Of a stretch of 64,000 bases of DNA, positions 1 through 14,618 are shown piece after piece. Position 1 is the stretch's first letter. Every line of letters begins with the position of its first letter. Source of the DNA: a virus. The stretch is from IMG/VR virus record IMGVR_UViG_3300046514_000687, positions 1 to 64,000 of that record; one strand, written 5' to 3'. Under the pieces are notes generated by a model that saw only the letters and a list, made by a program, of their open reading frames with translations, was not told the origin of the DNA and did not search any database. Position numbers and translations under genes: made by a program.

Positions 1-3
1 CAG

Positions 4-747
4 ATGGCCAGCGAGCTGCAGGGCCACGATAGCCTCGCCAAGTACACCCGCCCGGACGGCACGCTGGAGCCCGCGCGCCAGGCCCTCCACGACGCGATCG
101 TCGCCCGCGCTCTCGTCGGCGTCCCCCGCCAGGCCCACCCCACCGCCTACCTCATCGGCGGCGGCGCCGCCGCGGGCAAGAGCACGATGCTGAACAGCGG
201 CGCGGTCACGGTCCCCGCGCGCGGGGCCGCCGTATACGTCGAGCCGGACGAGGTGAAGAACGACCTGCCGGAGTTTAAGGCCGGCCTCGCCAAGCGGGAC
301 CCGAACATCGCCGGCTACGTCCACGCGGAGTCCAGCAACATCGGCAAGCGCGTCCTGAGCGAGGCCATCGGCCGCCACACCGACCTGATCCACGACGCCA
401 TCCACAACACCTCGCTCGGCGCGGTCGAGCAGCGCGTCGCGCGCATGCGCGCCGCCGGCTACCGCGTCGAGGCCAGCTACGCGACCGTCCCGATCCAGAC
501 GGCCGTCGACCGCGCCCAGGCCCGCGGCGAGCGCACCGGCCGCTTCGTCCCGCTCGACGCCATCATGCAGGGCCACGCCGGCGTCGCCGCCATGTTCCCG
601 TCGCTGCTGAGCCACCACGTCTTCGACAAGGTGACGCTGCACGAGACCAGCGGCACGACGCCCCACCTGCTCGCCAGCCAGACCAACGGCCACACCGTCA
701 TCCACGACAGAGCCGGCTACGCGGCGTTCCTGGCGCGGAAGGGCTGA
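4..747 (+). CDS. Zeta-toxin-like P-loop kinase domain; probably the C-terminal part of a longer ORF truncated at the window edge
   Basis: Walker A GGGAAAGKST, then PDEVKxxLPE, VHxESS, GY.V, and RAxxRGERTGRFVP, the layout of zeta/PezT-like kinases. The frame is open to base 1. Confidence 0.75.
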   Translation: MASELQGHDSLAKYTRPDGTLEPARQALHDAIVARALVGVPRQAHPTAYLIGGGAAAGKSTMLNSGAVTVPARGAAVYVEPDEVKNDLPEFKAGLAKRDPNIAGYVHAESSNIGKRVLSEAIGRHTDLIHDAIHNTSLGAVEQRVARMRAAGYRVEASYATVPIQTAVDRAQARGERTGRFVPLDAIMQGHAGVAAMFPSLLSHHVFDKVTLHETSGTTPHLLASQTNGHTVIHDRAGYAAFLARKG

Positions 748-920
748 TGGACTACCCGTCGCTGCTCCGCATGTACCAGGCGCAGACGCTCGGCCTGACG
801 ATGGCTGAGGCGGGGTTCCCGAACACCCTGGAGAACCAGGCCCAGTGGGACCGCTGCGCCGCGCAGATCGCCGAGATCACCGCACGCGGTGGCGTCGTTG
901 AGCTGCCCCAGGACAGCTAG
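747..920 (+). CDS. Small 57-aa protein (MDYPSLLRMY...), candidate antitoxin for the upstream kinase
   Basis: Not in the ORF track; read by hand. Its ATG overlaps the kinase stop (TGATG at 745-749), TAG at 918-920. Function is inferred from position only. Confidence 0.5.
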   Translation: MDYPSLLRMYQAQTLGLTMAEAGFPNTLENQAQWDRCAAQIAEITARGGVVELPQDS

Positions 921-929
921 GAGGCGACT

Positions 930-1073
930 GTGCGGGGCTTCTGGCGCGTGGTCTGGTGCCACCTGGTCCACTCCTGGGACTGGCAGAATCCCCGATGGCG
1001 CGAGGACTACCAGGCGCTGCTCTACCGCTGCCCCTACTGCCGTTGTGAGCGGCAGGCGATGGTGTGGCGCTGA
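930..1073 (+). CDS. Small Cys/His-rich protein (47 aa; C..H.W...CPYC)
   Basis: GGAGG at 920-924, GTG start, and a TGA overlapping the next ATG (1071-1075). Confidence 0.5.
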   Translation: MRGFWRVVWCHLVHSWDWQNPRWREDYQALLYRCPYCRCERQAMVWR

Positions 1074-4000
1074 TGGCCGACCAGTATCTCTTTGACTTAA
1101 CAGTCGGCGGGTACATCGACCCCGCCGGTCGCCCCGTGCCCGTTACAGCGATCAACGCCGCCGCCAGCGAGGTGCAGAGCCGCGCCCGCGACGAGATGGC
1201 CGCCCTCACCAAGCGGCTCGTGGACGGCGACCTCACCCCCGCCCGCTGGGAGCGCCAGGCCAGCGCCATGCTGCGCGAGGCGCACCTCACCGCCACCGCC
1301 CTCGCCGTCGGCGGCTGGGCCCAGGTGCCCGCCTTCGAGGACGACCTGGTGGACCGGCTGACCGGCGAGTTCACCTACCTCGCCGGCTTCCGCACCGCGC
1401 TCCCTGATCTAACGGAAGGCCAGATCGCCGCCCGCGCCGACCTGTACGCCAGCAACGTCTGGGCGACCTACCAGCAGATGCGCGGCGCGCTGGCCGAGCA
1501 GACCGGCATGGACGAGGAGCGCAACGTGACCGACCCCGCGGCCGAGTCCTGCGCCGAGTGCGACGACCTGGAGGCTGACGACTGGGTACCACTGGACACA
1601 CTGCCCGAGGTCGGTGAGCGTGCCTGTCTCGCCCGCTGCCGGTGCACGATCGAGTACCGCGCCGCCGGCGTGGAGGAGAAGCGAGTGCTGGTCGGCGCGG
1701 GCGTGGCGCGGGCCTACAACCCGGACGAGCCGCGCCTCCCCGCCGGTGGTCCCGGCGGTGGGGAGTGGACGAGCGATGGCGGGAGCGACACGGGTGCGCC
1801 TGACTCTCTGGCCACACTCGCCTCAGCGCTCAGTCCGGCGAGCGCTGAGTCCTGGCTCCAACGCGACGCTCACGGCGGGCTGCGCCCCGTAGATGTGGGA
1901 GCCTTGGCGACTACACGGGAGAGCCGGGGCTTCATCGGCACGAGCGGCGCTGGCTACGAGATCACAAGTCAGGCAGTTCACAACCAGATCGGCCAGGAGC
2001 TTGCTGCGGCACACGGCTACCACGGCATAGAGTCGCCCATGACAACCGTGCTGGAGGCCGGCCACCTGATTCGCTACGTCTCGCTGCCCAAGCAGCACGA
2101 GCTGGGCGTCGAGCTGCACGCGCCGCCTTCCGACTCGCAGTGGAGTACGCTGCGGCGGTTTGCAACCAGCCTGCCAGACGCTCGCTTTTTGTTCGATGTT
2201 TACCCCCCTAAGGGAGCGCCCGACTATGCGGCGCGGTTCGGGATCGGAGAGGGGTTCGGCAAGCTGCGCGCCGCGGCAGAACGCGCCTACGGGCCGGTTA
2301 ATGGCGCAGCCCGCGGCCTCTTCCGCGCCTGGGATGAGGCGCAGCACCCCCGCGAGCCCGCCGGCACGAGCGCCGGCGGGGAGTTTGCGGGTGGAGAAGG
2401 TGGCGGCTTGCCTGCGACCGCTCCGGCGACCGGCGAGCGCGACATGGCTGCCAGCCGGTACATCGAGGCCGCCGTTCCGGTCGGGGATGTGGAAGACGAC
2501 ACTCAGACCGGCATCGTTCGGTATGCGGTCGCGCAGGAGCTAGCCTCTGACGTCTACGCTGCCGTGGGCGCCAAGGGGGCGTTCTCGGATCTCGCGGATG
2601 CGACGAAGTGGGTCGACGACCAGATTCGCACCTGGGAAGGCAGCAGTCGGGCAACGCGCATCCTTGGGTTGCACGAGGCGGTGCGCCAGAAGTTCGACCT
2701 GCCTGAGTCCACCATGCGCGGCGTAGCCGACCTCCCGCTTACGCCATCGCCGGAGCAGCGCGCTCTGGTCGATGCCATCTACCGGAATACTCAGGCCCAC
2801 CTCGCCGCGCTCGGGATCAAGGAGCTGACGCTCGTTCGGGGCGGGCTGGTGCAAGATGCGCTGCTACCGCCCGGCATCCGGCACGGCGGTCAGGGCGACC
2901 ACGTGGACGGCACCGCGCAGCTCGCTCCGCTGAACTCCTGGACGAGCCAGCCGCACTGGGCCGAGCGGTTCGCTAACGCCCACGGCCTCGCGCAGGCGCC
3001 GCAAGCCGGCCAACAGCGCACCGCCGTCGTCCTCCAGGCGCGCGTACCAGCAGCGCGCATCTTCAGCACCGGCCGCACCGGGCTCGGCGCTCTCGTTGCT
3101 CACGAGTACGTGGTTCTCGGCGGCCCAACTCCCACGCGCTTCCACGCTGAGGAGCTAAGCGGCGGGTTCCAGTATCGCGCAGCTCGGGCTACGGGGCTTG
3201 TGCCTGTGGATGCGGATCCGGAAAGCCTGGACTGGCTTCGCTGGGCAGTGGCCTACCAGGTGGCTCAGGAGCGCGCCTTCAACCCGGACCAGCCGCGCGA
3301 CGACCAGGGGCGCTGGACGACTAGCGACGACAATAGCCGCGTGAGCGACCTGGCGCCGCCCGGCGAGCCGCCGCCCCACACCGTCAGCAACGACGAGCTG
3401 CGGGGTCTGATCGACTGCGTCTCCGGGGAGTACGCCGACATTCGCCAGCAGGCCGAGCGCGACGACACGGACGCTTCCGCCCGCGAGTACCAGCGCCTCG
3501 GCGACTACCTCCACGCGCTCTACGCCGAGGCGAACCGGCGCGACTTGTTCAAGGCCTACAACCCTGACCAGCCCCGCGACGAGCACGGCCGGTGGACTGA
3601 TAGTGGTGGAACCGTAGTCCCTACGCGCGAGCCGAGCCAGGATGCTGCGGTGGAGGCAGCCCTGTTTGCAGGTGCGTCTACTTCTAGCACCGAGCTAGAA
3701 AAGATCGCTGCCGCGGCGATCGCTGCGCGCATCGAAGCCAACCCCGCTCACGACTCCGCGGCCTTCGACGCAATCTTCCAGAGCCCCTACGACTACGTGC
3801 GGTCGGTCGAGCATGCGTGGCAGCTCGACGCGCAGAGCGTCACGTCTATGCGGTTTGCGGAAGCCGTCGCTCACGCCCTGGATCTCCCGCCGGCGGCCGT
3901 GAGTGCGATGGGTAACCGGGCCGACGCGGGACGCAACGCCGTGCCGATGATGGAGGTGGCTCGCGCGACCTACGCGGAGACCCAGGCGCAGCTCGCCGCT

Positions 4001-7000
4001 GCGGGCCTCCCCAGCGTGGTCCTCTATCGCGGTGTGAACCACTACCACGATGAACTCCCCGCCGGGCTGAAACCCGGCGTGAGTGATAGCCACGCCGATG
4101 TGTCATTCACGGCCCGCCCTCTGACGTCCTGGAGTTCGGACCCCACCGCTGCCGAGCTGTTTGCCCTCCGCCAGCGCAGCTCCGACCGCACCGGCTATGT
4201 CCTGTCTGCACGCGTGCCCGCCAGCCGGATCTTCTCCACCGGGCGCAGCGGGTTTGGCGAGCGCATCGAGCGCGAGTTCCTGGTACTCGGCGGCTCCATG
4301 AAGGCTCGCGCGCACACAGCCCGGACGGCCGGGGGGCAGATTGATGTGACGCGCGCTGCCCCTCGTGAGCCCGTGCTAAACATCGACGCAGACCGCGAGA
4401 ATGCTGACTGGCTGCGCTGGGTCGCGCGTGTGCGCCAGGCGGCCCCCCGCGCCTTTAACCCCGTCGAGCTGGAGTGGGACCCCGCGCAGCACCCGCGTAT
4501 CCCCGCCGGCCAGCCCGGCGCGGGCGAGTTTATCGGCGGCACGGCCAGCGCGCCCGAGGACCCGGCCGCTCGCGCCTGGTACCAGCGCGGCCACGAGGGC
4601 CTGCCCACCCAGCCCGAGGTCAACCGGCTGGCGCGCGAGGTCAGCCGCGGTCTGCGCGCCCAGGTCCCCACCGGCCCCAAGCCGCTGGACCTGATGAACA
4701 TCTGGCACAGCGGCGCGCGCAGTGCCAAGTACCGCGACCTGCGCTCGGCCGTCCAGCAGGAGTTTCACTTGCCTGGCGACTGGGCCACCCACCGTGACCC
4801 CGCTCAGTACAAGCCGCTGGTCCGGGCGATCTACGCTGCTACGCAAAACCAGCTCGCCGCGGCCGGCATCAAGGACGTCACGCTCTACCGCGGCCTGCTG
4901 CTCGGCAACGACACGCTGCCGCCCGGCGTCGGCCCCGGCCGCTCCGGCGGCCACGCCGATACCGTCCACCAGGGGCGCCCGCTGGCCTCCTGGACCAGTA
5001 ACCCCGCCATCCCGCCGGGATTCGCTAAAACCCACCACAAGGACGGCATGACCGCGGTGATCCTCCAGGCGACCTTTCCCGCCAGCAAGGTGTTCAGCAC
5101 CGCCCACACCGGCATCGGCCTGCTGCGCAAAGAGGAGTTCGTTATCCTTGGCGGGCCCCAGCACGTCCGTCTGCATACCCAGGATGCGCGCGGGCGCTGG
5201 GACCTGTATAAGAGCCTGATAGACCACAGTGCGGACGTGGAGAATGACGCCTGGCTCCACGAGGACGACCCCGAGCCGTTGCTGGTCGAGGATCCCGACG
5301 GCACCGTCCACCCCGTTGCTACCCCCGCAGAGCTGGCCGCGGCGCTGGCGGGGATGGGCCTGACGCTCGCGGAGTTCCTCCAGACGCCCGCCGCAGCAGC
5401 GATGCCTGCCAGCCTGCGACCCGCACCGGGTAAAGCGGTCAAGTACTCGCCCGACCAGCCCCGCGACGAACACGGGCGGTTTGCCACAGGTAGTAGCGGC
5501 GATGGCGAAGCCACCAAGCCCAAGCACGACCCGCCGGTGATCGGCGCCGGCCGCGACGCCACCACGCGCCCCGACCCCGAGTACGACCGCCTCCACGCCG
5601 ACCTGCTCCGCCACACCAGCGGCCACCGCATGGACGGCGCGCGCATCGCCACGACGCAGTGGCTGGAGAAACAGCGCGCTGCGGCCGGGATCCCGGACAA
5701 GGGCCAGAAGGTCGCGCTGTGGGGGCTTGCCTGGAACCAGCTCCCCTCAGTAGCCGTCGCACTGGCTCGCTTCTACCAGCAGTACCCTCTAGTTGCGGCC
5801 GACCTGAAGACGGTAGATATCCTGCCCAACCGTCAGTTCCAGGGCGGCACCAAGCAGGTGGTGGCCCATGCCTGGCCCGACGGCCCCGTCAGCCACCTAG
5901 AGGGCAACGGGCTGCGGATGGCACAAGTCGACGACCACTCGCGCGTCCGCAACGGCTGGTTCCCCGAGGGCACGGACAAGGTGCAGGGCATCCTCTGGCA
6001 CGAGCTGGGGCACGTCCTGAACCACCACCTGGACCGCGTAATGGCGACCCGTCCGTTCAACGACCGTGCCGCGGAGGACTGGCGCGACTTCCAGAAGCAC
6101 GAGATGAGCAGCGACCGCCTGTCGCAGTACTCGGTGTCCAAGACCGACCCGAAAGCGAAGTGGCGCGAGGGGTTCGCGGAGTCTTTCGCCCAGTACAACC
6201 TAGCATCTACCGACAAGTGGACCGCCCCGACCTTTAAACTCGCGGCCCTCCTGGAGCATTCCTGGGTCGCGCCGCTGGTCGGCCACCGCAGCAAGAGCGT
6301 GGGCTGGTTCTTCACTCGCGAGTGGGACGAGGCGCAACACCCGCGCGAGCCGGCCGGTAGCCCTCAAGGGGGCGAGTTCGCCGGCGGCGCTGAAGCCGCA
6401 GCCGCTCTCCTCGCTCAGCGCAAGCCCGACCCCTCTGCGCTCCGGGAGACTATCGCCGCAGCCGACGCGGCGGCTGCCGCTGCAGCCGCCCTGAACGGCC
6501 AGTCCGTCGACGACTACAAAGCCTCGGTCGAGGCCAACCTGCGCCGCCTGTATGATGAAGCTGAGATCCACATCCTCCTGCGCGCCGACCGCGTCGGCAA
6601 GCTGCTCAGCGACGGTGAGCTGAAGACCGCCTTCGAGGTGTCTCGCCTGCGGAAGCAGGACGAGAACTACATGGCGTCGCGCAGCCAGATCGAGCAAACC
6701 ATGTTCGGCCTGCCCGCCGATACTCCCGTGGATAACCGCCCAATCTACGGGTCGCTCGCCACCCCCGGCGTCGGGCCGGACATTATCGAGCACGACAGCT
6801 ACGGCGGCACGACGCTGGAGCTGAAGCCTTCCGTCAAGGACCGCGCCACCGCGCTGTGGGGCGACAGCTTCGAGCGCAAGCAGGCTACCGCTGACGGCTC
6901 GGGCTGGTATGCGGCCTCGCCGGCCCCGGTACACGACCCGAAGTGGTACTCGGCGGGCACCTACGCGCGTATTCCGGACGTCGGCGCCGCGGCTGACCCC

Positions 7001-7426
7001 GCGCGCCTGGACACCGTGTCTAACATGAAGGGCGCGGCCTACATCGAGACGCAGATCCACGGCGACGCAGCCCACCCTGCCGTGTCCGTTAGCGATATTG
7101 CCCGCGTCGTCTTCGATAAGCCGCCCTCGGCCAGTGCGGTCAGGGCGCTGGATAAGCTGGGCATCGCCCACGCCTCCTACCAGTTCGAGGCCGAGCCATA
7201 CCCGCCGCACACCGGCCGGCCAGCGGCGCAGGAGTTCGGCCGCCTCCGCGACGCCTACGCCTACCACGGACGCGAGCTGACTATGCTGGCGAAGTTCGGC
7301 GAGCACTACGAGCACTGGACCGGCGACCCGAAGTGGAAGGAGAAGTCCATGAAGTGGCGTGATGACATGCGCCGCTGGCAGGGGGTGACCGAGGCCAGCT
7401 TTGCCAAGTGGGGAGAGCCGCTCTGA
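1073..7426 (+). CDS. MuF-like minor head polyprotein 1: MuF-like domain, unknown domain, ART, small helical domain, ART, ART, HExxH metallopeptidase, DUF3626-like domain
   Basis: The N-terminal domain ends in SCAEC...LP..G.R.CLARCRC, the MuF-type Cys signature. Seven linker repeats, three L[YV]RG...SW[TS]...xxE.VLGG motif sets, WHELGH...EGFAES, and RPIYG...YG...GDS...YIETQIHG. Start placed at the TGATG overlap. Confidence 0.8.
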   Translation: MADQYLFDLTVGGYIDPAGRPVPVTAINAAASEVQSRARDEMAALTKRLVDGDLTPARWERQASAMLREAHLTATALAVGGWAQVPAFEDDLVDRLTGEFTYLAGFRTALPDLTEGQIAARADLYASNVWATYQQMRGALAEQTGMDEERNVTDPAAESCAECDDLEADDWVPLDTLPEVGERACLARCRCTIEYRAAGVEEKRVLVGAGVARAYNPDEPRLPAGGPGGGEWTSDGGSDTGAPDSLATLASALSPASAESWLQRDAHGGLRPVDVGALATTRESRGFIGTSGAGYEITSQAVHNQIGQELAAAHGYHGIESPMTTVLEAGHLIRYVSLPKQHELGVELHAPPSDSQWSTLRRFATSLPDARFLFDVYPPKGAPDYAARFGIGEGFGKLRAAAERAYGPVNGAARGLFRAWDEAQHPREPAGTSAGGEFAGGEGGGLPATAPATGERDMAASRYIEAAVPVGDVEDDTQTGIVRYAVAQELASDVYAAVGAKGAFSDLADATKWVDDQIRTWEGSSRATRILGLHEAVRQKFDLPESTMRGVADLPLTPSPEQRALVDAIYRNTQAHLAALGIKELTLVRGGLVQDALLPPGIRHGGQGDHVDGTAQLAPLNSWTSQPHWAERFANAHGLAQAPQAGQQRTAVVLQARVPAARIFSTGRTGLGALVAHEYVVLGGPTPTRFHAEELSGGFQYRAARATGLVPVDADPESLDWLRWAVAYQVAQERAFNPDQPRDDQGRWTTSDDNSRVSDLAPPGEPPPHTVSNDELRGLIDCVSGEYADIRQQAERDDTDASAREYQRLGDYLHALYAEANRRDLFKAYNPDQPRDEHGRWTDSGGTVVPTREPSQDAAVEAALFAGASTSSTELEKIAAAAIAARIEANPAHDSAAFDAIFQSPYDYVRSVEHAWQLDAQSVTSMRFAEAVAHALDLPPAAVSAMGNRADAGRNAVPMMEVARATYAETQAQLAAAGLPSVVLYRGVNHYHDELPAGLKPGVSDSHADVSFTARPLTSWSSDPTAAELFALRQRSSDRTGYVLSARVPASRIFSTGRSGFGERIEREFLVLGGSMKARAHTARTAGGQIDVTRAAPREPVLNIDADRENADWLRWVARVRQAAPRAFNPVELEWDPAQHPRIPAGQPGAGEFIGGTASAPEDPAARAWYQRGHEGLPTQPEVNRLAREVSRGLRAQVPTGPKPLDLMNIWHSGARSAKYRDLRSAVQQEFHLPGDWATHRDPAQYKPLVRAIYAATQNQLAAAGIKDVTLYRGLLLGNDTLPPGVGPGRSGGHADTVHQGRPLASWTSNPAIPPGFAKTHHKDGMTAVILQATFPASKVFSTAHTGIGLLRKEEFVILGGPQHVRLHTQDARGRWDLYKSLIDHSADVENDAWLHEDDPEPLLVEDPDGTVHPVATPAELAAALAGMGLTLAEFLQTPAAAAMPASLRPAPGKAVKYSPDQPRDEHGRFATGSSGDGEATKPKHDPPVIGAGRDATTRPDPEYDRLHADLLRHTSGHRMDGARIATTQWLEKQRAAAGIPDKGQKVALWGLAWNQLPSVAVALARFYQQYPLVAADLKTVDILPNRQFQGGTKQVVAHAWPDGPVSHLEGNGLRMAQVDDHSRVRNGWFPEGTDKVQGILWHELGHVLNHHLDRVMATRPFNDRAAEDWRDFQKHEMSSDRLSQYSVSKTDPKAKWREGFAESFAQYNLASTDKWTAPTFKLAALLEHSWVAPLVGHRSKSVGWFFTREWDEAQHPREPAGSPQGGEFAGGAEAAAALLAQRKPDPSALRETIAAADAAAAAAAALNGQSVDDYKASVEANLRRLYDEAEIHILLRADRVGKLLSDGELKTAFEVSRLRKQDENYMASRSQIEQTMFGLPADTPVDNRPIYGSLATPGVGPDIIEHDSYGGTTLELKPSVKDRATALWGDSFERKQATADGSGWYAASPAPVHDPKWYSAGTYARIPDVGAAADPARLDTVSNMKGAAYIETQIHGDAAHPAVSVSDIARVVFDKPPSASAVRALDKLGIAHASYQFEAEPYPPHTGRPAAQEFGRLRDAYAYHGRELTMLAKFGEHYEHWTGDPKWKEKSMKWRDDMRRWQGVTEASFAKWGEPL

Positions 7427-9528
7427 TGGTGGCCGTGATCGGGCGCCACGGCGAGGAGGCGCTGCTGATTAGCCTGGAGGACGCGCCGCCCGGCGAGGAC
7501 CACGGCTTCGTGGTATACCCGGCGAAGTTCCGCGCCGGCCCCGTCGTTGGCGTCAGCAGCATTCTTGCGCGCGACCCCGACTGGGAGTGGGTGGATCCGC
7601 CGGACCACGCCGCGGCTCAGGAGCTGCTGGCAGTCCTGCCGCACCCGCCAGTCGCGCCGGCCGCTGAGAAGGCCGTCACCCGCTACAGCCCGGACCAGCC
7701 CCGCGAGCCCGCCGGCTCGCCTGAGGGCGGCCAGTTCGCCGGCGACGTGGGCGGGGCGGGTGGTAGTGCGGCTGACCACCCGCAAGGGCCTACTATTCCA
7801 GAGGCCGGCACCGCTAACGTGGCGGTCAGCCAGCAGGTCACGAGCGAGGACTGGAACGAGGATCCCCGCGAGTACGAGGCCGAGCGCCTAGACCGCCTGC
7901 GCTGGATGTTCGCCGAATCTGGCCTGGAGAACCCCGACCGTGCCGAGACGGTGAGCCAGAACGTTAAGGACATGTGGCACCACGACCACCTAGCGCAACT
8001 CACCTCAGACTTTCGCGCCGCCGCGGCTGCGGAGTTCGGCCTGCCCGGCGCCAAGGAGACGGTCGAGCAGTTCCACAGCGAGTACTGGACGGAGCTGAAG
8101 GCTACCGCGCGCGGGATCTACGACGAGACGCAGCGCCAGCTCCTCAACAACCACGGCGACCTCAGCCACCTGACCCTCTTCCGCGGCATGCAGGTGCCGG
8201 ATGCAGCTGTACCTACCAGCCTGCGCGGGAGCGACGTACACGCCAACGCCACGCTCCAGCTCAAGCCGCTGGACTCCTGGACGACTGACCCCGCGGTGGC
8301 CCATCGCTTCGCTACCGGCACCGACGTCAGTACCGGCATCCGTCCCGGCCACACCGGAGTAGTCCTGCAGGCTCGCTTCCCCATCCAGCGTATCCTGGGG
8401 TGGGACAAAACCGGGATCGGCTTCGGCGGGGAGGCTGAGGTGGTCGTGCTCGGCGGCCCCGCTCATGTGCGGGTGCACCGGACGACCAGCGGGGGCACGG
8501 TAGACGTTACGAAGGCCGCGCCGCTCGACCTGGGCGAGTTCGGCTGGGAGCGCCACAACGACAACTGGCTCTGCACCAACACCGCACTCCAGCGCGCCCT
8601 GCCCGGCTTTGTCCGCGCCTGGGACGAAGAGCAGCACCCCCGCGAGCCGGCGGGGACCTCAGCCGGTGGCGAGTTTGCCAGCGGCGCGGGTGGCAGTTAC
8701 GAGGGCTACCCGGACGGGCCGCGGGACAGCTTCCTGCCGATCAATACTATCGCTACAGCGATGGAGTCAGCTGACCCGTCGCTGTCACCCGGCGATGCCG
8801 TCCAGGCGGCCCAGGACGTGATGCATCGCTGGAACGCTAACCCCAAGGACCCCGCATCCATGCTCTTGATGCTGCAAGCCGCCGAGGTCTTTGGGCTGAC
8901 TGATGCTGAGCCTACGCCGCACAAGCTTCCAATCCCCGAGATTGCCGATCTGCTCATTGCTCCGGTCACCGCGGCCGGTCTGAAGGCGGTGCTGAAGCCG
9001 ATGTACGACGCCACGCAGGCGCACCTGGCGAAGCGCGGGATCGCCGGGGGCACCCTGTATCGCGGCATGATCCTGCCCAGCGCCACGGTCCGGGCGATGG
9101 AGGCCGCGGGCGGGACGCTCCGGCAGCGCGCTCTTTCCTCCTGGACGAGCGACGCTTCCGTCGCTCGCGAGTATGCGGATCCGAAGTATCACCACAACAC
9201 GGACCCGGACATGGTCCCGGTGATCGTGAGTGCCCACGTACCCGCGTCTCGCGTCCTTTCCTCGCCGCAGACGGGTTTCGGCTATGACATGTCAGCCGAG
9301 ATCGTAGTTCTGGGAGGGCCCATTCCCGTGCACGTCCACCGCGTTACGCCCGCCAAAACCGCCGCCTCGGACGGAGCCGCCGCCCGGCCCGTGATCGTCG
9401 AGGACGACCGCGCCGCCGAGTGGCTTCACGCGATGCGCGACCGCCCCCCGGTGCGCTCGTTTACTCGCGAGTGGGACGAGAGCCAGCATCCGCGCGTCCC
9501 CGCCGGCAGCCCCGAGGGCGGGGAGTTT
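1709..9528 (+). repeat. Ten dispersed protein-level linker repeats of two types: [KR]-A/Y-(Y/F)NPDQPR..GR[WF] and R-[AE]-WDE.QHPR.PAG...GGEF
   Basis: Copies begin near 1709, 2324, 3272, 3551, 4448, 5432, 6311, 7669, 8611 and 9451. Confidence 0.9.
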
Positions 9529-10455
9529 GGTGGAGGGGAGGGTAGTCCCCAGGCTGCTGCCGTGCCCTACCAGGGACCGGAACCCCCGTACAGCGAGCGC
9601 ACTGACCCGATCCTGTGGAACCCCGACGGCGGCGAGCCGCTCTACGCCGGCGATATGCGAAGCTGGGGCGAGGCTAACTACGAGCGCCTGGCCGACGAGC
9701 TGCAGAAGGACCCGACGATGCCGTTCGACCCGCCCGGCGGCAAGGAGACCGCGCGCGGGATGTTCCGCAGCTACGCGACAGGCTGGAACGGGGGCGGCGC
9801 CGGCCACGCCGAGCTGATGGCCGTTGCGACGGAGTTCGGCCTTTCGACCGCGGACGTATATCCTGACCCGTTCCACCAAACCTTTGACCCCGCCACGAAA
9901 CCGTGGGACCGGGCACGGATGGCCTGGGCGCGCGCCACCTACGACGCTACTCAGGCAGACTTCAAGGCGCAGGGTCTGAAGGAAGTCACGCTCTATCGGG
10001 GGACTGCCATGATGCCTGACAAGCTCCCCCCCGGCGTGCACGAGAGCCGGGCGCCCGCGAATGCCGACGTGCAGATGCAGCCCCTATCATCCTGGACCAG
10101 CAACCCGCAGGAAGCACGCAGGTTCGCCATCAAGAGTCGCGGCGGCGACCCGACTCCGGTGGTTCTCGCGGCGCGCTTCCCCGTCTCGCGGATCTTCTCG
10201 ACGGTACGCACCGGACCCGGCACCTTCCCCGAGCGCGAGTACGTCGTGCTTCGGGGGAAGACGACCGCGCGTCTGCACGTCGACGTGGAGCACCTAGACC
10301 GCGCCATCACCGGAGGCCCCCTGCCCGTCGTGACCGTAGACGCGACCCGCGAGGACATGAACTGGCTGCACTGGCTATACGGCCGCCCCGCGCCGGTGCC
10401 GCCCTTCGAGCCAGACCGCCCGAATGGTACGATGGACGGAGGAGGCGCCCGATGA
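7426..10455 (+). CDS. Polyprotein 2: ~80-aa N-terminal domain plus three linker-delimited ART modules
   Basis: ATG overlaps the previous TGA (7424-7428). Three linker repeats and three R-S-E motif sets: LFRG/DSWT/EAE, LYRG/SSWT/SAE, LYRG/SSWT/ERE. Confidence 0.8.
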   Translation: MVAVIGRHGEEALLISLEDAPPGEDHGFVVYPAKFRAGPVVGVSSILARDPDWEWVDPPDHAAAQELLAVLPHPPVAPAAEKAVTRYSPDQPREPAGSPEGGQFAGDVGGAGGSAADHPQGPTIPEAGTANVAVSQQVTSEDWNEDPREYEAERLDRLRWMFAESGLENPDRAETVSQNVKDMWHHDHLAQLTSDFRAAAAAEFGLPGAKETVEQFHSEYWTELKATARGIYDETQRQLLNNHGDLSHLTLFRGMQVPDAAVPTSLRGSDVHANATLQLKPLDSWTTDPAVAHRFATGTDVSTGIRPGHTGVVLQARFPIQRILGWDKTGIGFGGEAEVVVLGGPAHVRVHRTTSGGTVDVTKAAPLDLGEFGWERHNDNWLCTNTALQRALPGFVRAWDEEQHPREPAGTSAGGEFASGAGGSYEGYPDGPRDSFLPINTIATAMESADPSLSPGDAVQAAQDVMHRWNANPKDPASMLLMLQAAEVFGLTDAEPTPHKLPIPEIADLLIAPVTAAGLKAVLKPMYDATQAHLAKRGIAGGTLYRGMILPSATVRAMEAAGGTLRQRALSSWTSDASVAREYADPKYHHNTDPDMVPVIVSAHVPASRVLSSPQTGFGYDMSAEIVVLGGPIPVHVHRVTPAKTAASDGAAARPVIVEDDRAAEWLHAMRDRPPVRSFTREWDESQHPRVPAGSPEGGEFGGGEGSPQAAAVPYQGPEPPYSERTDPILWNPDGGEPLYAGDMRSWGEANYERLADELQKDPTMPFDPPGGKETARGMFRSYATGWNGGGAGHAELMAVATEFGLSTADVYPDPFHQTFDPATKPWDRARMAWARATYDATQADFKAQGLKEVTLYRGTAMMPDKLPPGVHESRAPANADVQMQPLSSWTSNPQEARRFAIKSRGGDPTPVVLAARFPVSRIFSTVRTGPGTFPEREYVVLRGKTTARLHVDVEHLDRAITGGPLPVVTVDATREDMNWLHWLYGRPAPVPPFEPDRPNGTMDGGGAR

Positions 10456-10703
10456 CGCAGTACGTCTGTCCCATCTGCTACGGCTGCACGCGCTTCCGCG
10501 ACGTGCCGGCCGGCCAGGACCGGCTCTGCTGCACGGCCTACCCCGCCGGCATCCCCGAGGCCATTCTGTTCAGCCAGGCGGACCACCGCCAGCCCTACGC
10601 CGGCGACGGTGGCCAGCAGTTCGACCCCGCTGATGCCGCCGGCGCCGCCTACGCCGAGACGGTCTTTAACCCCGAGCCGGTGAACGTAGACGCGCCGCCG
10701 TGA
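10452..10703 (+). CDS. Small Cys-rich protein (CxxC...C.AYP.GIP..I.....DH..P..GD.G..F), putative immunity protein
   Basis: ATGA overlap with the last ART, a strong GGAGGAGG RBS, and a TGGTACGAT extended -10 just upstream. The immunity role is inferred. Confidence 0.6.
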   Translation: MTQYVCPICYGCTRFRDVPAGQDRLCCTAYPAGIPEAILFSQADHRQPYAGDGGQQFDPADAAGAAYAETVFNPEPVNVDAPP

Positions 10704-10981
10704 GTGCGGCCGGCGCGCTGGAGTGGATCGGCTACCTCACCGTCAGCCGCGTCTGCGAGGCCGGCCGCCCGGTCCTCCGCTACGAGTGGCGCGGCGGGCC
10801 GCAGATCCTGGTGGACCTGGAGCTGTTCACGAAGATGGAGCCCGGCTTCTGGACCGGCCACGTCCCGCCCCACCTTCGGGAGCGCGCCAGGCTGGGACCG
10901 TTCGCGGTGCGGGTGGTCGGCTACGACGCGGGCTGCGACTGGTACGTGCTGATGCGCGAGGACGGCGATGAGCCAGCCTGA
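10700..10981 (+). CDS. Hypothetical protein
   Basis: GTGA overlap with the previous stop; plausible amino-acid composition. Confidence 0.5.
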   Translation: MSAAGALEWIGYLTVSRVCEAGRPVLRYEWRGGPQILVDLELFTKMEPGFWTGHVPPHLRERARLGPFAVRVVGYDAGCDWYVLMREDGDEPA

Positions 10982-11397: not shown

Positions 11398-11443
11398 GCC
11401 CACACCCGAGTCTTCGTGACTCGCGGGAGTGGGCTTTTTCTTT
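11398..11443 (+). terminator. Hairpin plus U-tract in the leader of the protease gene
   Basis: GCCCAC..CCCGAGTC-TTCGT-GACTCGCGGG.GTGGGC followed by TTTTTCTTT. Confidence 0.5.
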
Positions 11444-11454
11444 GGAGGGACGCC

Positions 11455-13386
11455 ATGCCCGTCGGCACGAGCCGCCGATCTACGCCGTACACCTCCCTCG
11501 CGGAGTGGCGCACGCTCGCCATCGCCGGGAAGGCGAACCCCGACACCGTCCTCCGCAAGGCCTACACCTGCGACAAGATCAGCACCGTCGACGCGGACAA
11601 GCGCCAGAAGCAGTTCACCATCTCCACCGCCAGCGTGGACCGCGAGGGCGACACTGTCGCCCCCGAGGGCTGGGTCCTCAACGACTATGAGCGGAACCCC
11701 GTCGTCCTCTGGGCCCACGACGGCGAGGCGCCCCCCATCGGGCAGACCATCCGCATGGGCGTGGACCAGGGCCGCAAGCTCGTGAGCGTCGCCCAGTTCG
11801 CCCCGCCCGAGGTCTACGCTTTCGCAGACACCATCTACCGCCTGATCGACGGCGGCTACATCCGCGCCGCTAGCGTGGGGTTCCTGCCTATCGAGTTCCA
11901 CTTCGACAATACCCGCCAGTCGGCGAGCGGCTTCCAGCCGCCCTGCAACTTCGTCCGGCAGAGCCTGCTGGAGTGGTCGGTCTGCCCGGTGCCGGCCAAC
12001 CCCGACTGCCTCCTCCAGGCCCGCAGCGCCGGTATCGACCTGGAGCCGCTGCTGGGTTGGGCCGAGCGCATCCTGGAGGAGGGCCACGGCGAGCCGGGCC
12101 TGTGGATCAGCCGCGGTCAGGCGGAGGCGGTCCACCGGCTGCTCGGCACTACCCACCTCTCCCTGCCGAGCTGGGATGCCGCGTGCCCCGCCGGCGGGGC
12201 GTCTGCTGACCCGTTTCGCCTGGACACCCTCACGGTAGACGGCGAGCCGGTGCTGGACCTCGTCGAGCGCGCGGCCAAGCCGAAGCCGGATCCCGAGGAC
12301 GCGCAGGAGCCGCCCGAGACACCTGGCGAGGCGCCGGACGCGGAGGATCAGGCCGAGGGCCCGGAGCCGACCGACGAGGAGGATCCCCGCAAGCCGAAGC
12401 CGAAGGCGGCGGAACGGGCCGCCGCAGACCCCGGCGACGAGGCGATCGAGAAGGACGCGGTGCTGCGCCCGTACCCGAACGAGCACGCCTGCCGCCTCGC
12501 CGACCCCGGCCAGTTCGACAAGTTCCGCCGCGGCACGCGCGACCACGACGGCAAGCGCTACAGCGTCATCTACGCCCGGCCCAAGAGCGGCGACGGCGGC
12601 TGGCAGGAGCAGGCGTACCGCTACGCGACGGGCACCTGGGACGCCAAGGCTGCTCGCGCCCACTGCGACAGCCACGACGGCAGCTTCGAGGCCGCCAAGA
12701 CGGCGAACGCCGAGGCCCCCGTCACGAAGGGCGACGCGCCCCCGGTCGAGGACCCCGCTCAGGTCCCCGACTCGCTGGAGCAGCTGGCGGACTTCATGGC
12801 CGCTGACACACCCCTGGCGGACGCGGACGAGCCGGCTGCTCCAGTCACGCGCGCGACGGCCTACCCCGGCGAGCCGGGAGAGCCGACGGACCCCGAGGAT
12901 ACGGCGGAGGGGCCCGAGACGCCCGGCACCGACCCGGAGGACGCGGCCGAGACCCACGCCCGCAAGGCGCTGGTGACGGCGCAGACCGCCGCCACCCACC
13001 TCCAGAAGGCCGTCGCCGGCATGCGCCAGAAGGCCGCCGCGGGGCTCGACCCCAGCCACCACCTGCACATCGCCAAGGGCCTGATGGACCTGGCCGCCGC
13101 GCATGCGGGCATGGCACACGGCGCGATCAACTGTGCCTGCGGGGCGCCGATGGGCCGCCCCTTCCAGGCCGCCACCGACCCGCCCGTCACGCGCGCCGAA
13201 GAGCCCCCGCCGGAGCGGCGAGTCGTGCTCGTCGACCACACCCCCGAGCCGCCGCCGGCCGCCGCGCCTGACGACGAGGACGTGCTCGCGGACATCGCGC
13301 CCGAGGAGCTGCGCGCCATGGTTCAGGCTGGCGTACAGGCCAGCATCGAGGCTCGCCAGCGGCAAGCCGCCGGCCGAGTGGATTAG
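11455..13386 (+). CDS. HK97-family prohead maturation protease with a long acidic/Pro-rich C-terminal extension
   Basis: STASVDREGD, NPVVLWAH, PIG, ASVGF, LLEWSVCPVPANP. GGAGG precedes the ATG at 11455, and the gene lies directly upstream of the capsid gene. Confidence 0.92.
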   Translation: MPVGTSRRSTPYTSLAEWRTLAIAGKANPDTVLRKAYTCDKISTVDADKRQKQFTISTASVDREGDTVAPEGWVLNDYERNPVVLWAHDGEAPPIGQTIRMGVDQGRKLVSVAQFAPPEVYAFADTIYRLIDGGYIRAASVGFLPIEFHFDNTRQSASGFQPPCNFVRQSLLEWSVCPVPANPDCLLQARSAGIDLEPLLGWAERILEEGHGEPGLWISRGQAEAVHRLLGTTHLSLPSWDAACPAGGASADPFRLDTLTVDGEPVLDLVERAAKPKPDPEDAQEPPETPGEAPDAEDQAEGPEPTDEEDPRKPKPKAAERAAADPGDEAIEKDAVLRPYPNEHACRLADPGQFDKFRRGTRDHDGKRYSVIYARPKSGDGGWQEQAYRYATGTWDAKAARAHCDSHDGSFEAAKTANAEAPVTKGDAPPVEDPAQVPDSLEQLADFMAADTPLADADEPAAPVTRATAYPGEPGEPTDPEDTAEGPETPGTDPEDAAETHARKALVTAQTAATHLQKAVAGMRQKAAAGLDPSHHLHIAKGLMDLAAAHAGMAHGAINCACGAPMGRPFQAATDPPVTRAEEPPPERRVVLVDHTPEPPPAAAPDDEDVLADIAPEELRAMVQAGVQASIEARQRQAAGRVD

Positions 13387-13397
13387 CGGGAGGACGC

Positions 13398-14618
13398 ATG
13401 AACAAGGCCGAGCTGGCTGAGCTGATCCGCGACGTCTGCGGCAAGGTCGTGGAGGAGAAGTGGCAGACGATCGTGTCTGCCGATGCCGTCGGAAACGTGA
13501 CCCGCTACGGGCCGCCGCTGCTGGGCGCGGTGATCGACGAGACCCAGCCCTACTCCCAGGCGATCCAGCGCGTCAGCGCCAGCGAGCAGCGCGGCCTGCG
13601 CGCCGGCCGCCTGATTCGCTGCCTGGCCGCGGCGCGCGGCATCCCCGGCCTCGCCGCGGGGCACGCCCGCAAGGCCTTCCAGGACGAGGCGATGGCCAAG
13701 GCCCTGGAGGCCGGCGACGCGGTCGGCGGCGGCTTCCTGGTCCCGCCTGACTACTCCAGCGACATCATCGAGCTGCTGCGCCCCGTGGCGCGCGTCCGCG
13801 CCGCCGGGCCGACCCTGCTGCCGATGCCGGTCGGCACCGTTAGCATCCCGAAGGTCACCAGCGCCAGCACCGCGACCTACACCGGCGAGGGCCAGAACAT
13901 CCCGATCAGCCAGCCCGGCTTCGGGATGGTCACGCTCACCTGGCGCAAGCTGACCGCGATGGTGCCGATCAGCAACGACCTGATCCGCTTCGCGACCCCG
14001 AACGCCGACGCCTTCGTCCGCGACGACCTGGTCCGGGCGCTGGCGCTGCGCGAGGACCTCGCCTTCCTGCGCGGCGACGGCACCCAGTACACGCCCAAGG
14101 GCTTCCTGCACTGGGCACCCGCGGCGACCAACCTCCTGCCGGCCAACGCCACGATCAGCCTCACCAACGTGACGATCGACCTCGGCTCCATGCTGAACGT
14201 GATGGACGAGGCGAACATCCAGATGGTGCGGCCCGCCTGGTTCATGGCGCCGCGCACCAAGACCTTCCTGATGACCCAGCGCGACGGCCTGGGCAACTTC
14301 GCCTGGCGCACCGAGATGGCCGCCGGCACGCTGATGGGGTTCCCGTTCTACACCACGACGCAGATCCCGACGAACCTCGGCGTCGGCTCCAACGAGTCGG
14401 AGCTGTACCTGGCCGAGATGACGATGGCCGTCCTCGGCGAGTCCGAGCGGCTGCTCATCGACGCCAGCACCGAGGCGGCCTACTGGGACGGCACCCAGCT
14501 CCAGTCCACCTACTCGCGCGACCAGACCGCCATTCGCGCCATCGCCGAGCACGACTTCGCGATGCGCCACGACCAGGCCATCGTGGTCCTGCAGGCCGTC
14601 AAGTGGGGCGCCCCGTAA
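13398..14618 (+). CDS. HK97-fold major capsid protein
   Basis: KAL...GGFLVP....IIELLR, GEG, KL..MVPISN.LI, GDGT..PKG, LMGFP; 406 aa. Confidence 0.93.
   Translation: MNKAELAELIRDVCGKVVEEKWQTIVSADAVGNVTRYGPPLLGAVIDETQPYSQAIQRVSASEQRGLRAGRLIRCLAAARGIPGLAAGHARKAFQDEAMAKALEAGDAVGGGFLVPPDYSSDIIELLRPVARVRAAGPTLLPMPVGTVSIPKVTSASTATYTGEGQNIPISQPGFGMVTLTWRKLTAMVPISNDLIRFATPNADAFVRDDLVRALALREDLAFLRGDGTQYTPKGFLHWAPAATNLLPANATISLTNVTIDLGSMLNVMDEANIQMVRPAWFMAPRTKTFLMTQRDGLGNFAWRTEMAAGTLMGFPFYTTTQIPTNLGVGSNESELYLAEMTMAVLGESERLLIDASTEAAYWDGTQLQSTYSRDQTAIRAIAEHDFAMRHDQAIVVLQAVKWGAP

Follow-up and report, generated by a model that had tools for sequence, protein, structure and literature searches.

R-S-E ADP-ribosyltransferase modules arrayed in head-gene polyproteins of an uncultured phage, probable virion cargo

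The DNA analysed here (the window) is the first 64 kb of a 111,030-base IMG/VR virus record (IMGVR_UViG_3300046514_000687) with a G+C content of about 70%. Near its start, six modules bearing the Arg, Ser and Glu of the R-S-E class of ADP-ribosyltransferases (ARTs) form domains of two coupled giant open reading frames (ORFs), which lie on the + strand between the portal gene and the genes for the prohead protease and major capsid protein. A first-pass annotation made from the sequence had described six paralogous ARTs; the R-S-E modules themselves stood, whereas their status as six separate enzymes did not. Counting the portal polyprotein, three consecutive head-module polyproteins (1559, 2120 and 1015 amino acids (aa)) together carry seven R-S-E ARTs, a probable shortened eighth and one SopF/DUF3626-like ART-fold domain, along with a 2H phosphoesterase, a Zeta-toxin-like kinase and an HExxH peptidase-like domain. 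We consider it about 70% probable that the region encodes polyvalent effectors which are packaged in the head, processed by a protease and injected as virion cargo, and not six toxin genes. In the course of events that we infer, from packaging and cleavage to injection, activity and targets, the chains would enter the procapsid by way of the portal and the N-terminal head domains and be cut at or near conserved linkers by the prohead protease, the internal HExxH domain or both, the freed enzymes would exit with the DNA into the host, and host NAD+ would be used for ADP-ribosylating host molecules early in infection.

Six modules in two coupled frames and a seventh in the portal polyprotein

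The two giant ORFs encode polyprotein 1 (P0001) and polyprotein 2 (P0002), and their third-position GC of 0.84 supports the reading frame (Table 1). The TGA stop codon of polyprotein 1 overlaps the ATG of polyprotein 2 (TGATG, nucleotides (nt) 7424-7428) and is preceded by a GGGGAGAG box, the classic arrangement for translational coupling; the start of polyprotein 2 is likely ATG 7426 rather than GTG 7408. Near-identical proteins were present in a public library, namely P0005 (2120 aa) for P0001 and P0007 (1009 aa, beginning at ATG 7426) for P0002, so that both frames and the ATG 7426 start have been seen in independent assemblies. All six modules were in frame on the + strand, with the Y..TQ, SW[TS] and E..V[LI].G motifs at the places predicted by the first-pass annotation, and the six x-x-E triplets that it had read (AHE, ERE, KEE, EAE, SAE and ERE) were exact in both letters and position. 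Module bounds in Table 1 run from linker to linker. Three elements were invariant in the six-way alignment, namely Arg in Y/F-R-G, Ser-Trp in S-W-T/S and the catalytic Glu, and the other modules were 26-38% identical to ART1.

Table 1. Positions of the head-module features (window coordinates unless prefixed; G000:C1 denotes the full record; values following a family name are E values)
Feature	Position	Strand	Evidence or remarks
Portal polyprotein, 1559 aa	G000:C1:106931-111030 + window 1-747 (L008:11931-16028)	+	frame spanning the record's overlapping ends
Zeta-toxin-like P-loop kinase domain, C-terminal end of portal polyprotein	1..747	+	Zeta_toxin 1.3e-24
Polyprotein 1 (P0001, 2120 aa), MuF position directly after portal gene	1064..7426	+	single open frame, third-position GC 0.84
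N-terminal head-anchoring domain (215 aa), MuF-like by position	1064..1708	+	phrog_24776 7.6e-24; C-R-C-T motif at nt 1637
ART1	2330..3277	+	Arg592, Ser625, Glu681; loop AHE at 3098-3106
ART2	3557..4474	+	Arg989, Ser1022, Glu1071; loop ERE at 4268-4276; DRAT 0.028
ART3	4475..5443	+	Arg1276, Ser1309, Glu1358; loop KEE at 5129-5137
HExxH zincin-like metallopeptidase candidate	5444..6322	+	H-E-L-G-H at nt 5999, read from sequence
SopF/DUF3626-like ART-fold domain, other ART clade	6323..7423	+	DUF3626, phrog_8314 and SopF fold
Polyprotein 2 (P0002, 1015 aa from GTG 7408)	7408..10455	+	third-position GC 0.84
ART4 (module chosen for folding)	7684..8619	+	Arg259, Ser290, Glu344; loop EAE at 8431-8439; DRAT 9.9e-4
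ART5	8620..9471	+	Arg552, Ser578, Glu631; loop SAE at 9292-9300
ART6	9472..10452	+	Arg864, Ser895, Glu944; loop ERE at 10231-10239; DRAT 0.034
Two small coupled ORFs, 83 aa (Cys-rich) and 93 aa	10452..10981	+	third-position GC 0.90 and 0.94
Prohead protease and scaffold-like protein	11416..13386	+	phrog_80 4.9e-10, phrog_3244 2e-7, phrog_617 5.1e-20
Major capsid protein, HK97-like	13398..14618	+	phrog_10 5.6e-51; 42-47% identity to Burkholderia phage capsid proteins

The count of six holds for the window, while the genome has a seventh copy. A search with the six-module profile located ART7 at G000:C1:109961-110752, outside the window, with the loop G-T-E and S-W-T-G at the Ser motif; the Arg is invariant across all seven copies. 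ART7 belongs to the portal polyprotein, the frame of which is divided between the two ends of the record: the last 152 nt (G000:C1:110879-111030) correspond to window 1-152 with 151/152 identical positions, so the assembly closes on itself and the portal frame runs on into window 1-747. Apart from 3 mismatches, the joined frame is identical to library protein P0052 (1559 aa). Pfam matched Phage_portal (3.8e-37), 2_5_RNA_ligase2 (the 2H phosphoesterase, 1.6e-10) and Zeta_toxin (1.3e-24) in this protein, which is arranged as portal, Pro-rich spacer, 2H phosphoesterase, candidate short ART, ART7 and Zeta-toxin-like kinase. The short segment between the 2H domain and ART7 matched a 268-sequence family profile with an E value of 0.002 and the six-module alignment with an E value of 0.049, and its Arg (W-R-A-G), Ser (S-A-S) and E-A-E stand in register with the family profile; Atlas, a protein-language-model search, gave leads only, to ADPrib_exo_Tox and Mod-type ARTs. 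This segment is probably a shortened eighth ART, and we treat it as a candidate, not as a finding. Among the seven full copies, all 21 pairwise BLASTP comparisons were significant (1.8e-76 to 4e-6 at a database size of 1e8). Mean pairwise identity of the modules was 20% in the N-terminal helical part versus 41.5% in the core, as expected from the first-pass description of the N-terminal parts as the more divergent.

Fold, family and history of the modules

The AlphaFold2 model of ART4, built from a 25-sequence alignment, had a predicted local distance difference test score (pLDDT) of 75.6 and a predicted template-modelling score (pTM) of 0.76, and consisted of six helices followed by a beta core. 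The top PDB match in Foldseek was the Vis toxin (E 5.9e-4, probability 0.97), ahead of TreX/TreTu, cholera toxin A1, C3 and ART2.2. In a VIA search, which is independent of Foldseek, TreX ranked at the top with a middling Z of 7.2 (root-mean-square deviation 3.0 over 100 residues), followed at Z 4.8-5.6 by C2-I, CPILE-a, PltA, VIP2, Certhrax, C3bot2, Vis, pertussis S1, HopU1, C3larvin and Scabin, and R-S-E ARTs filled at least 20 of the top 40 places. Among the viral models of BFVD, the model matched uncharacterised Bacillus phage SP-15 proteins (7.9e-13) and a 1390-aa 'Phage head morphogenesis domain-containing protein' (3.2e-11), with Alt-like viral models ranking far lower. DRAT (PF07357) was the only Pfam ART family matched, with none other at E up to 1: the whole of P0002 scored 33 bits against a cut-off of 25, and 8 of 25 family members matched (best E 8.3e-10), relatives reaching 65.6 and 83 bits. 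These matches span only the C-terminal catalytic half of the profile (positions about 147-255 of 256). NCBIfam had no match for P0001 or P0002, the PDB sequence search with the six-module profile returned nothing, and tblastn of P0002 gave only three weak Bacillus phage matches. The conserved positions were Arg, Ser and Glu, not the H-Y-D configuration of the Tox-ART-HYD2 or N4-like type. Collectively, the motifs, the DRAT match, the Foldseek match to Vis and a VIA list dominated by R-S-E toxins support the assignment of the modules to the ART fold and the R-S-E class, which the first-pass annotation had proposed.

A search of 1.84 billion cluster representatives with the six-module profile gave 3709 clusters at E up to 1e-3, of which 2479 also passed a stricter limit of 1e-10. 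The top 150 clusters, in a ranking that favours multi-copy proteins, were mostly proteins of 700-7000 aa with 2-11 matched stretches, and one of 7059 aa held 11 copies. All 20 of the 20 members looked up were metagenomic; they were unnamed or named for another fused domain (GNAT, DnaQ-like exonuclease), and none of the 20 carried an ART name. For two of the proteins with four copies each, P0010 and P0016, the longest contig listed has the same length, 102,061 bases; they may share one contig, in which case batteries of similar size would exist elsewhere. Across 304 domain instances of the family, the Arg was conserved in 302, the Ser in 273 and the Glu in 296, which points to selection on catalysis. 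This retention, together with the invariance of all three residues in the seven copies, makes it very improbable that the modules serve chiefly as structural proteins of the head interior, or are pseudo-enzymes acting as capsid filler or DNA-ejection aids, an explanation that can appeal to their repeated modular build and large mass, which resemble the internal-body or internal proteins of other phages, and to the fact that their enzymatic activity is so far a prediction.

The residue two positions before the catalytic Glu was itself Glu in 262/304 domains (86%), which makes ExE the family norm. The present phage departs from this norm, as four of its seven copies lack that first Glu and only three have it. 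The K-E-E loop recurred in four modules orthologous to ART3, drawn from three other proteins, and a G-x-E loop recurred in both ART7 orthologues, which are modules of two other proteins; no close relatives of ART3 were found in IMG/VR. The inheritance of these odd loops among orthologues argues for a maintained, differentiated function, and the catalytic-loop diversity highlighted by the first-pass annotation therefore looks functional and not like decay. From C3 as compared with the iota and C2 toxins, it is established that acceptor choice among ARTC-type enzymes depends in part on the helical subdomain and on the residue that opens the Q/E-x-E loop; a battery directed at several targets would thus be expected to show the pattern found here. 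The divergent helical subdomains, and loops that vary between paralogues yet are kept within orthologues, suggest that the paralogues may hit different acceptors.

The same loops bear on a different explanation, in which the domains are mainly NAD+ glycohydrolases, or modify nucleic acids or small molecules, and thereby disable NAD+-dependent or nucleotide-signalling defences. The loss of the first Glu in four copies would suit such activities, the same proteins carry the 2H phosphoesterase and a SopF/DarT-like domain with the DNA-modifying DarT as a fold neighbour, and R-S-E enzymes are known to include NADases and DNA-modifying members (PMC9503650). We nevertheless consider this explanation unlikely, as DRAT and the best fold matches (Vis, TreX, C2-I, VIP2 and C3) are mostly protein-modifying and the arginine-type ExE loop is the norm in 86% of the family; the interpretation as injected ADP-ribosylating effectors is preferred.

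A phylogeny had been proposed as a test of in-situ duplication, and the maximum-likelihood tree of 268 domains gave a negative outcome, since the nearest relatives of several modules lay in other phages and not in the same genome. ART1, ART2, ART3, ART6 and ART7 fell within one 14-leaf clade alongside modules of five other proteins, and ART4 and ART5 were placed elsewhere. P0008 supplied the pairing partners of both ART7 and ART3, a different module for each, and ART7, ART3 and ART2 each grouped with modules of P0008, P0057, P0158 or P0013, not with copies from the same genome. P0008 is the P0001 orthologue of a related phage (79% identity in the SopF-like domain), yet it holds an orthologue of the portal-borne ART7. 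The tree and the ART7 orthologue in P0008 thus argue for old paralogues shuffled between head proteins and not for recent local amplification, and the copies appear to be common to, and shuffled among, related phages. Recent tandem amplification of one ART gene in situ could draw on the 52% identity between ART1 and ART7 and on the presence of five copies in one 14-leaf clade; set against these are the groupings described above, the separate placement of ART4 and ART5, and identities of only 29-44% in the other pairs, and we regard such an amplification as highly improbable. Recent in-situ duplication was rejected as a candidate on the basis of this tree.

Linkers, partner domains and the case for virion cargo

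Every domain of the three polyproteins is bounded by copies of a conserved linker, 13 in total, with the pattern aromatic, D/N/S, P/E, x, Q, H/P, P, R, then G...[FW]. It occurs in two flavours, W-D-E-x-Q-H-P-R-x-P-A-G-...-G-G-E-F and F/Y-N-P-D-Q-P-R-D-x-x-G-R-W, and most copies have a basic residue one or two positions upstream. The motif was also observed in 40 of 153 other ART-family proteins, which come from unrelated assemblies; no paper describing it was found in the literature searched, and no mention of it was found in PMC5512222. A second element, the acidic tail D-x-D-x-x-N-x-D-W-L-R/H, follows every ART copy about 35-40 residues (105-120 nt) past the catalytic Glu (for example at window 3215-3250, 4390-4425 and 8550-8585) and recurs in about 16% of family domains elsewhere; possible roles are docking, inhibition in cis or a cleavage signal. 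A broader and tentative proposal, which we would not bet on at present, is that the linker is a general, undescribed 'cargo code' of tailed phages that marks enzymes for encapsidation and provides the cut sites of the prohead protease, and that the DRAT-like family represents major unnamed injected effectors, each paralogue with a different host acceptor, including non-arginine or non-protein ones. If this were true, the host would receive eight or nine distinct ADP-ribosylating activities from a single virion.

The N-terminal domain of polyprotein 1 also begins P0008, P0013, P0050 and P0057, and contains a C-R-C-T motif that we take to be typical of MuF. Atlas gave a lead only to Phage_Mu_F, with a score of 0.94, and the MuF nature of these 215 residues rests on position and on this lead; we call the domain MuF-like by position. 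The candidate HExxH domain has homologues in P0158, P0008 (twice), P0050 and P0057, and no Pfam or PHROG family matched it. The C-terminal domain (aa 1775-2120, nt 6386-7423) matched phrog_8314 (1.1e-14) and, with 21.1 bits against a cut-off of 27, DUF3626 (1.7e-4). Its tblastn relatives were mycobacteriophage L5 gp2 (1e-12), Tierra gp9, in which the domain is fused to the capsid maturation protease and which is annotated as 'capsid maturation protease and ADP-ribosyltransferase', a Nodularia phage 'DUF3626 domain-containing protein' and TP901-1 ORF33, and all four passed the DUF3626 cut-off with 27.6-36.2 bits, TP901-1 ORF33 consisting of Phage_Mu_F plus DUF3626. An AlphaFold2 model from ten sequences (pLDDT 74) matched SopF in Foldseek (7dn8_A, E 1.6e-5, probability 1.00, TM 0.45/0.52 over 316 columns), with DarT next. 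SopF contains DUF3626 (PMC6682159) and is an ADP-ribosyltransferase of ATP6V0C (PMC10333799). The DUF3626 relatives and the SopF fold match thus indicate that P0001 ends in an ART-fold domain of another clade. The Salmonella protein SopF (PF12294) shares its fold with this domain, which is itself related in sequence to phage DUF3626 head proteins; SopF differs in being a type III secretion effector that requires a host ARF GTPase, and nothing similar is implied here.

Giant proteins of this kind have a precedent in the polyvalent proteins of phages and conjugative elements (Iyer et al. 2017, PMC5512222). Published examples include ART arrays of the H-Y-D clade, with up to 12 copies in a Pseudomonas prophage protein. 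Shared features are the giant multi-effector chains within the virion module, anchoring through portal or MuF, and ARTs as the commonest modifying domain. In the published proteins a peptidase domain is predicted to process the chain, a role for which the HExxH domain is a candidate here, although it matched no Pfam family; unlike those arrays, the one described here is R-S-E and DRAT-like. At least two unrelated effector domains, by which polyvalent proteins are defined, occur both in P0001 (three ARTs, HExxH and SopF-like) and in the portal polyprotein (2H, ART and Zeta toxin). The virion-module context is given by Phage_portal (3.8e-37), fused in frame, and by the head gene order, which runs from the large terminase through the portal polyprotein, P0001, P0002, two small coupled ORFs, the protease/scaffold protein, the major capsid protein and the head-tail adaptor to the tape-measure protein. 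The first-pass annotation had compared the modules with the T4 genes Alt, ModA and ModB; as a comparison with separate genes this is not supported, since the modules sit in polyvalent head polyproteins. Alt remains an instructive parallel as a head-packaged R-S-E ART that the prohead protease processes and that enters the cell with the phage DNA to ADP-ribosylate host proteins (PMC5512222, PMC9503650). It differs in being the single-domain product of its own gene, and no match to the Alt/VIP2 Pfam family was found here. Fusions of single ARTs, of the Alt/VIP2 and N4 types, to MuF or portal were noted in a later survey (PMC9503650).

Several observations weigh against the interpretation as virion cargo. 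No Pfam match to Phage_Mu_F (PF04233) was obtained in the N-terminal domain of P0001 or in the genome, the match of the putative processing protease to Peptidase_S78 was weak (E 0.024), and no host could be assigned from genome comparisons. Single modules scored 13.8-18.8 bits on DRAT, under the cut-off of 25, and the VIA scores, at Z 5-7, lie in a range where unrelated folds or chance arrangements occur, so that the assignment of the ART fold also leans on the motifs and Pfam. We infer packaging, cleavage and injection from gene order and precedent only. Finally, twelve portal-fused cargo chains per virion, of about 1100 aa each, would be bulky unless processed.

On another reading, the locus would encode polymorphic toxins of the MuF type with which lysogens attack rival bacteria, and the small ORFs downstream would encode the immunity proteins. 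MuF toxins often have ART domains and are followed by small ORFs of <150 aa (PMC5576092), and two small, strongly coding ORFs do stand directly after P0002. However, no Phage_integrase or Resolvase match (tyrosine or serine integrase) was detected across the 111-kb genome, while reports of MuF toxins come almost exclusively from temperate phages; eight or nine enzymes are hardly within reach of two small ORFs acting as antidotes; and neither a Pfam MuF domain nor an antidote enzyme was found. Specifically, neither ADP-ribosylglycohydrolase (PF03747) nor a Macro domain was detected in the 111-kb genome, the PF03747 search having detected control genomes. The absence of a reversing enzyme is more in keeping with action on the host than with a toxin-antidote pair. 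This explanation is accordingly improbable, although one such toxin, EFV of an Enterococcus faecalis prophage (Jamet et al. 2017, PMC5576092), resembles the present locus as a portal-adjacent minor head protein with a C-terminal ART, small ORFs after it and proposed delivery with DNA; it differs in having one toxin domain and a temperate phage, compared with three to four ART-type domains per protein here. A DraT/DraG-type or toxin-antidote pairing was likewise considered and ruled out by the lack of both reversing domains in the genome.

The interpretation as injected polyvalent effectors was further compared with other known ARTs. DraT (PF07357), an arginine-specific regulator of nitrogenase, has the same R-S-ExE type of active site, whereas the present modules have no DraG partner, stand in a phage head context and have a different N-terminal helical subdomain. 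C3, VIP2, iota/C2-I, Vis and TreX share the helical N-terminal subdomain followed by a beta-core, with the Arg, the Ser-x-Ser/Thr and an ExE-type loop; they differ in that identity is 8-18%, with Z only 5-7, and in being secreted or Rhs-delivered toxins. Four aspects are new: an abundant DRAT-like ART family for which neither Pfam nor NCBIfam has a dedicated model; the distribution of seven to nine ART-type domains across three head polyproteins encoded in succession by an apparently non-temperate phage; the lineage-conserved loop variants; and the linker and tail motifs. An R-S-E family other than that of Alt, stated in 2017 to be absent from genuine polyvalent proteins, proves to be one of the building blocks of giant and presumably injected polyproteins in uncultured phages. 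The seven paralogues offer a natural panel on how changes in the ARTT-loop and the helical subdomain retarget ADP-ribosylation, and the 13 linkers are testable candidate cleavage or packaging signals that could load foreign proteins into capsids. To our knowledge, bench studies of head-packaged ARTs have dealt almost only with T4 Alt.

Neighbouring genes and the genome record

With its matching ends, the genome is probably complete, either circularly closed or terminally redundant, at about 110.9 kb; the record carries the labels linear and 83% complete despite these ends. A gap of about 316 nt (window 747-1064) separates the portal polyprotein from polyprotein 1, and the single ORF within it (889-1095) has a third-position GC of 0.59 and is probably not coding. 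Downstream of the array, the 83-aa ORF begins by an ATGA overlap with the stop of polyprotein 2 and shows the Cys-rich pattern C-P-I-C ... C-C. The sole PHROG match of the small ORFs at 10452-10981 was phrog_33375, of unknown function, and they are candidate partners, immunity proteins or head accessory proteins. The protease/scaffold protein that follows is a candidate enzyme for linker cutting.

The nearest isolated capsid proteins are those of Burkholderia phages, at an identity (42-47%) too distant for naming a host. Megablast of the 9.4-kb region against 50,697 phage records gave no match, and neither the major capsid protein nor an ART pattern found a relative among 185,579 species genomes. 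Eight IMG/VR contigs with capsids 42-57% identical had no ART-family copy in the stretches examined, a result of little weight as these were mostly short fragments. Elsewhere in the record, a 574-aa ORF (L008:5576-7300, G000:C1:100576-102300) matched phrog_842, 'beta-glucosyl-HMC-alpha-glucosyltransferase' (4.2e-32), which hints that the phage DNA may be glycosylated.

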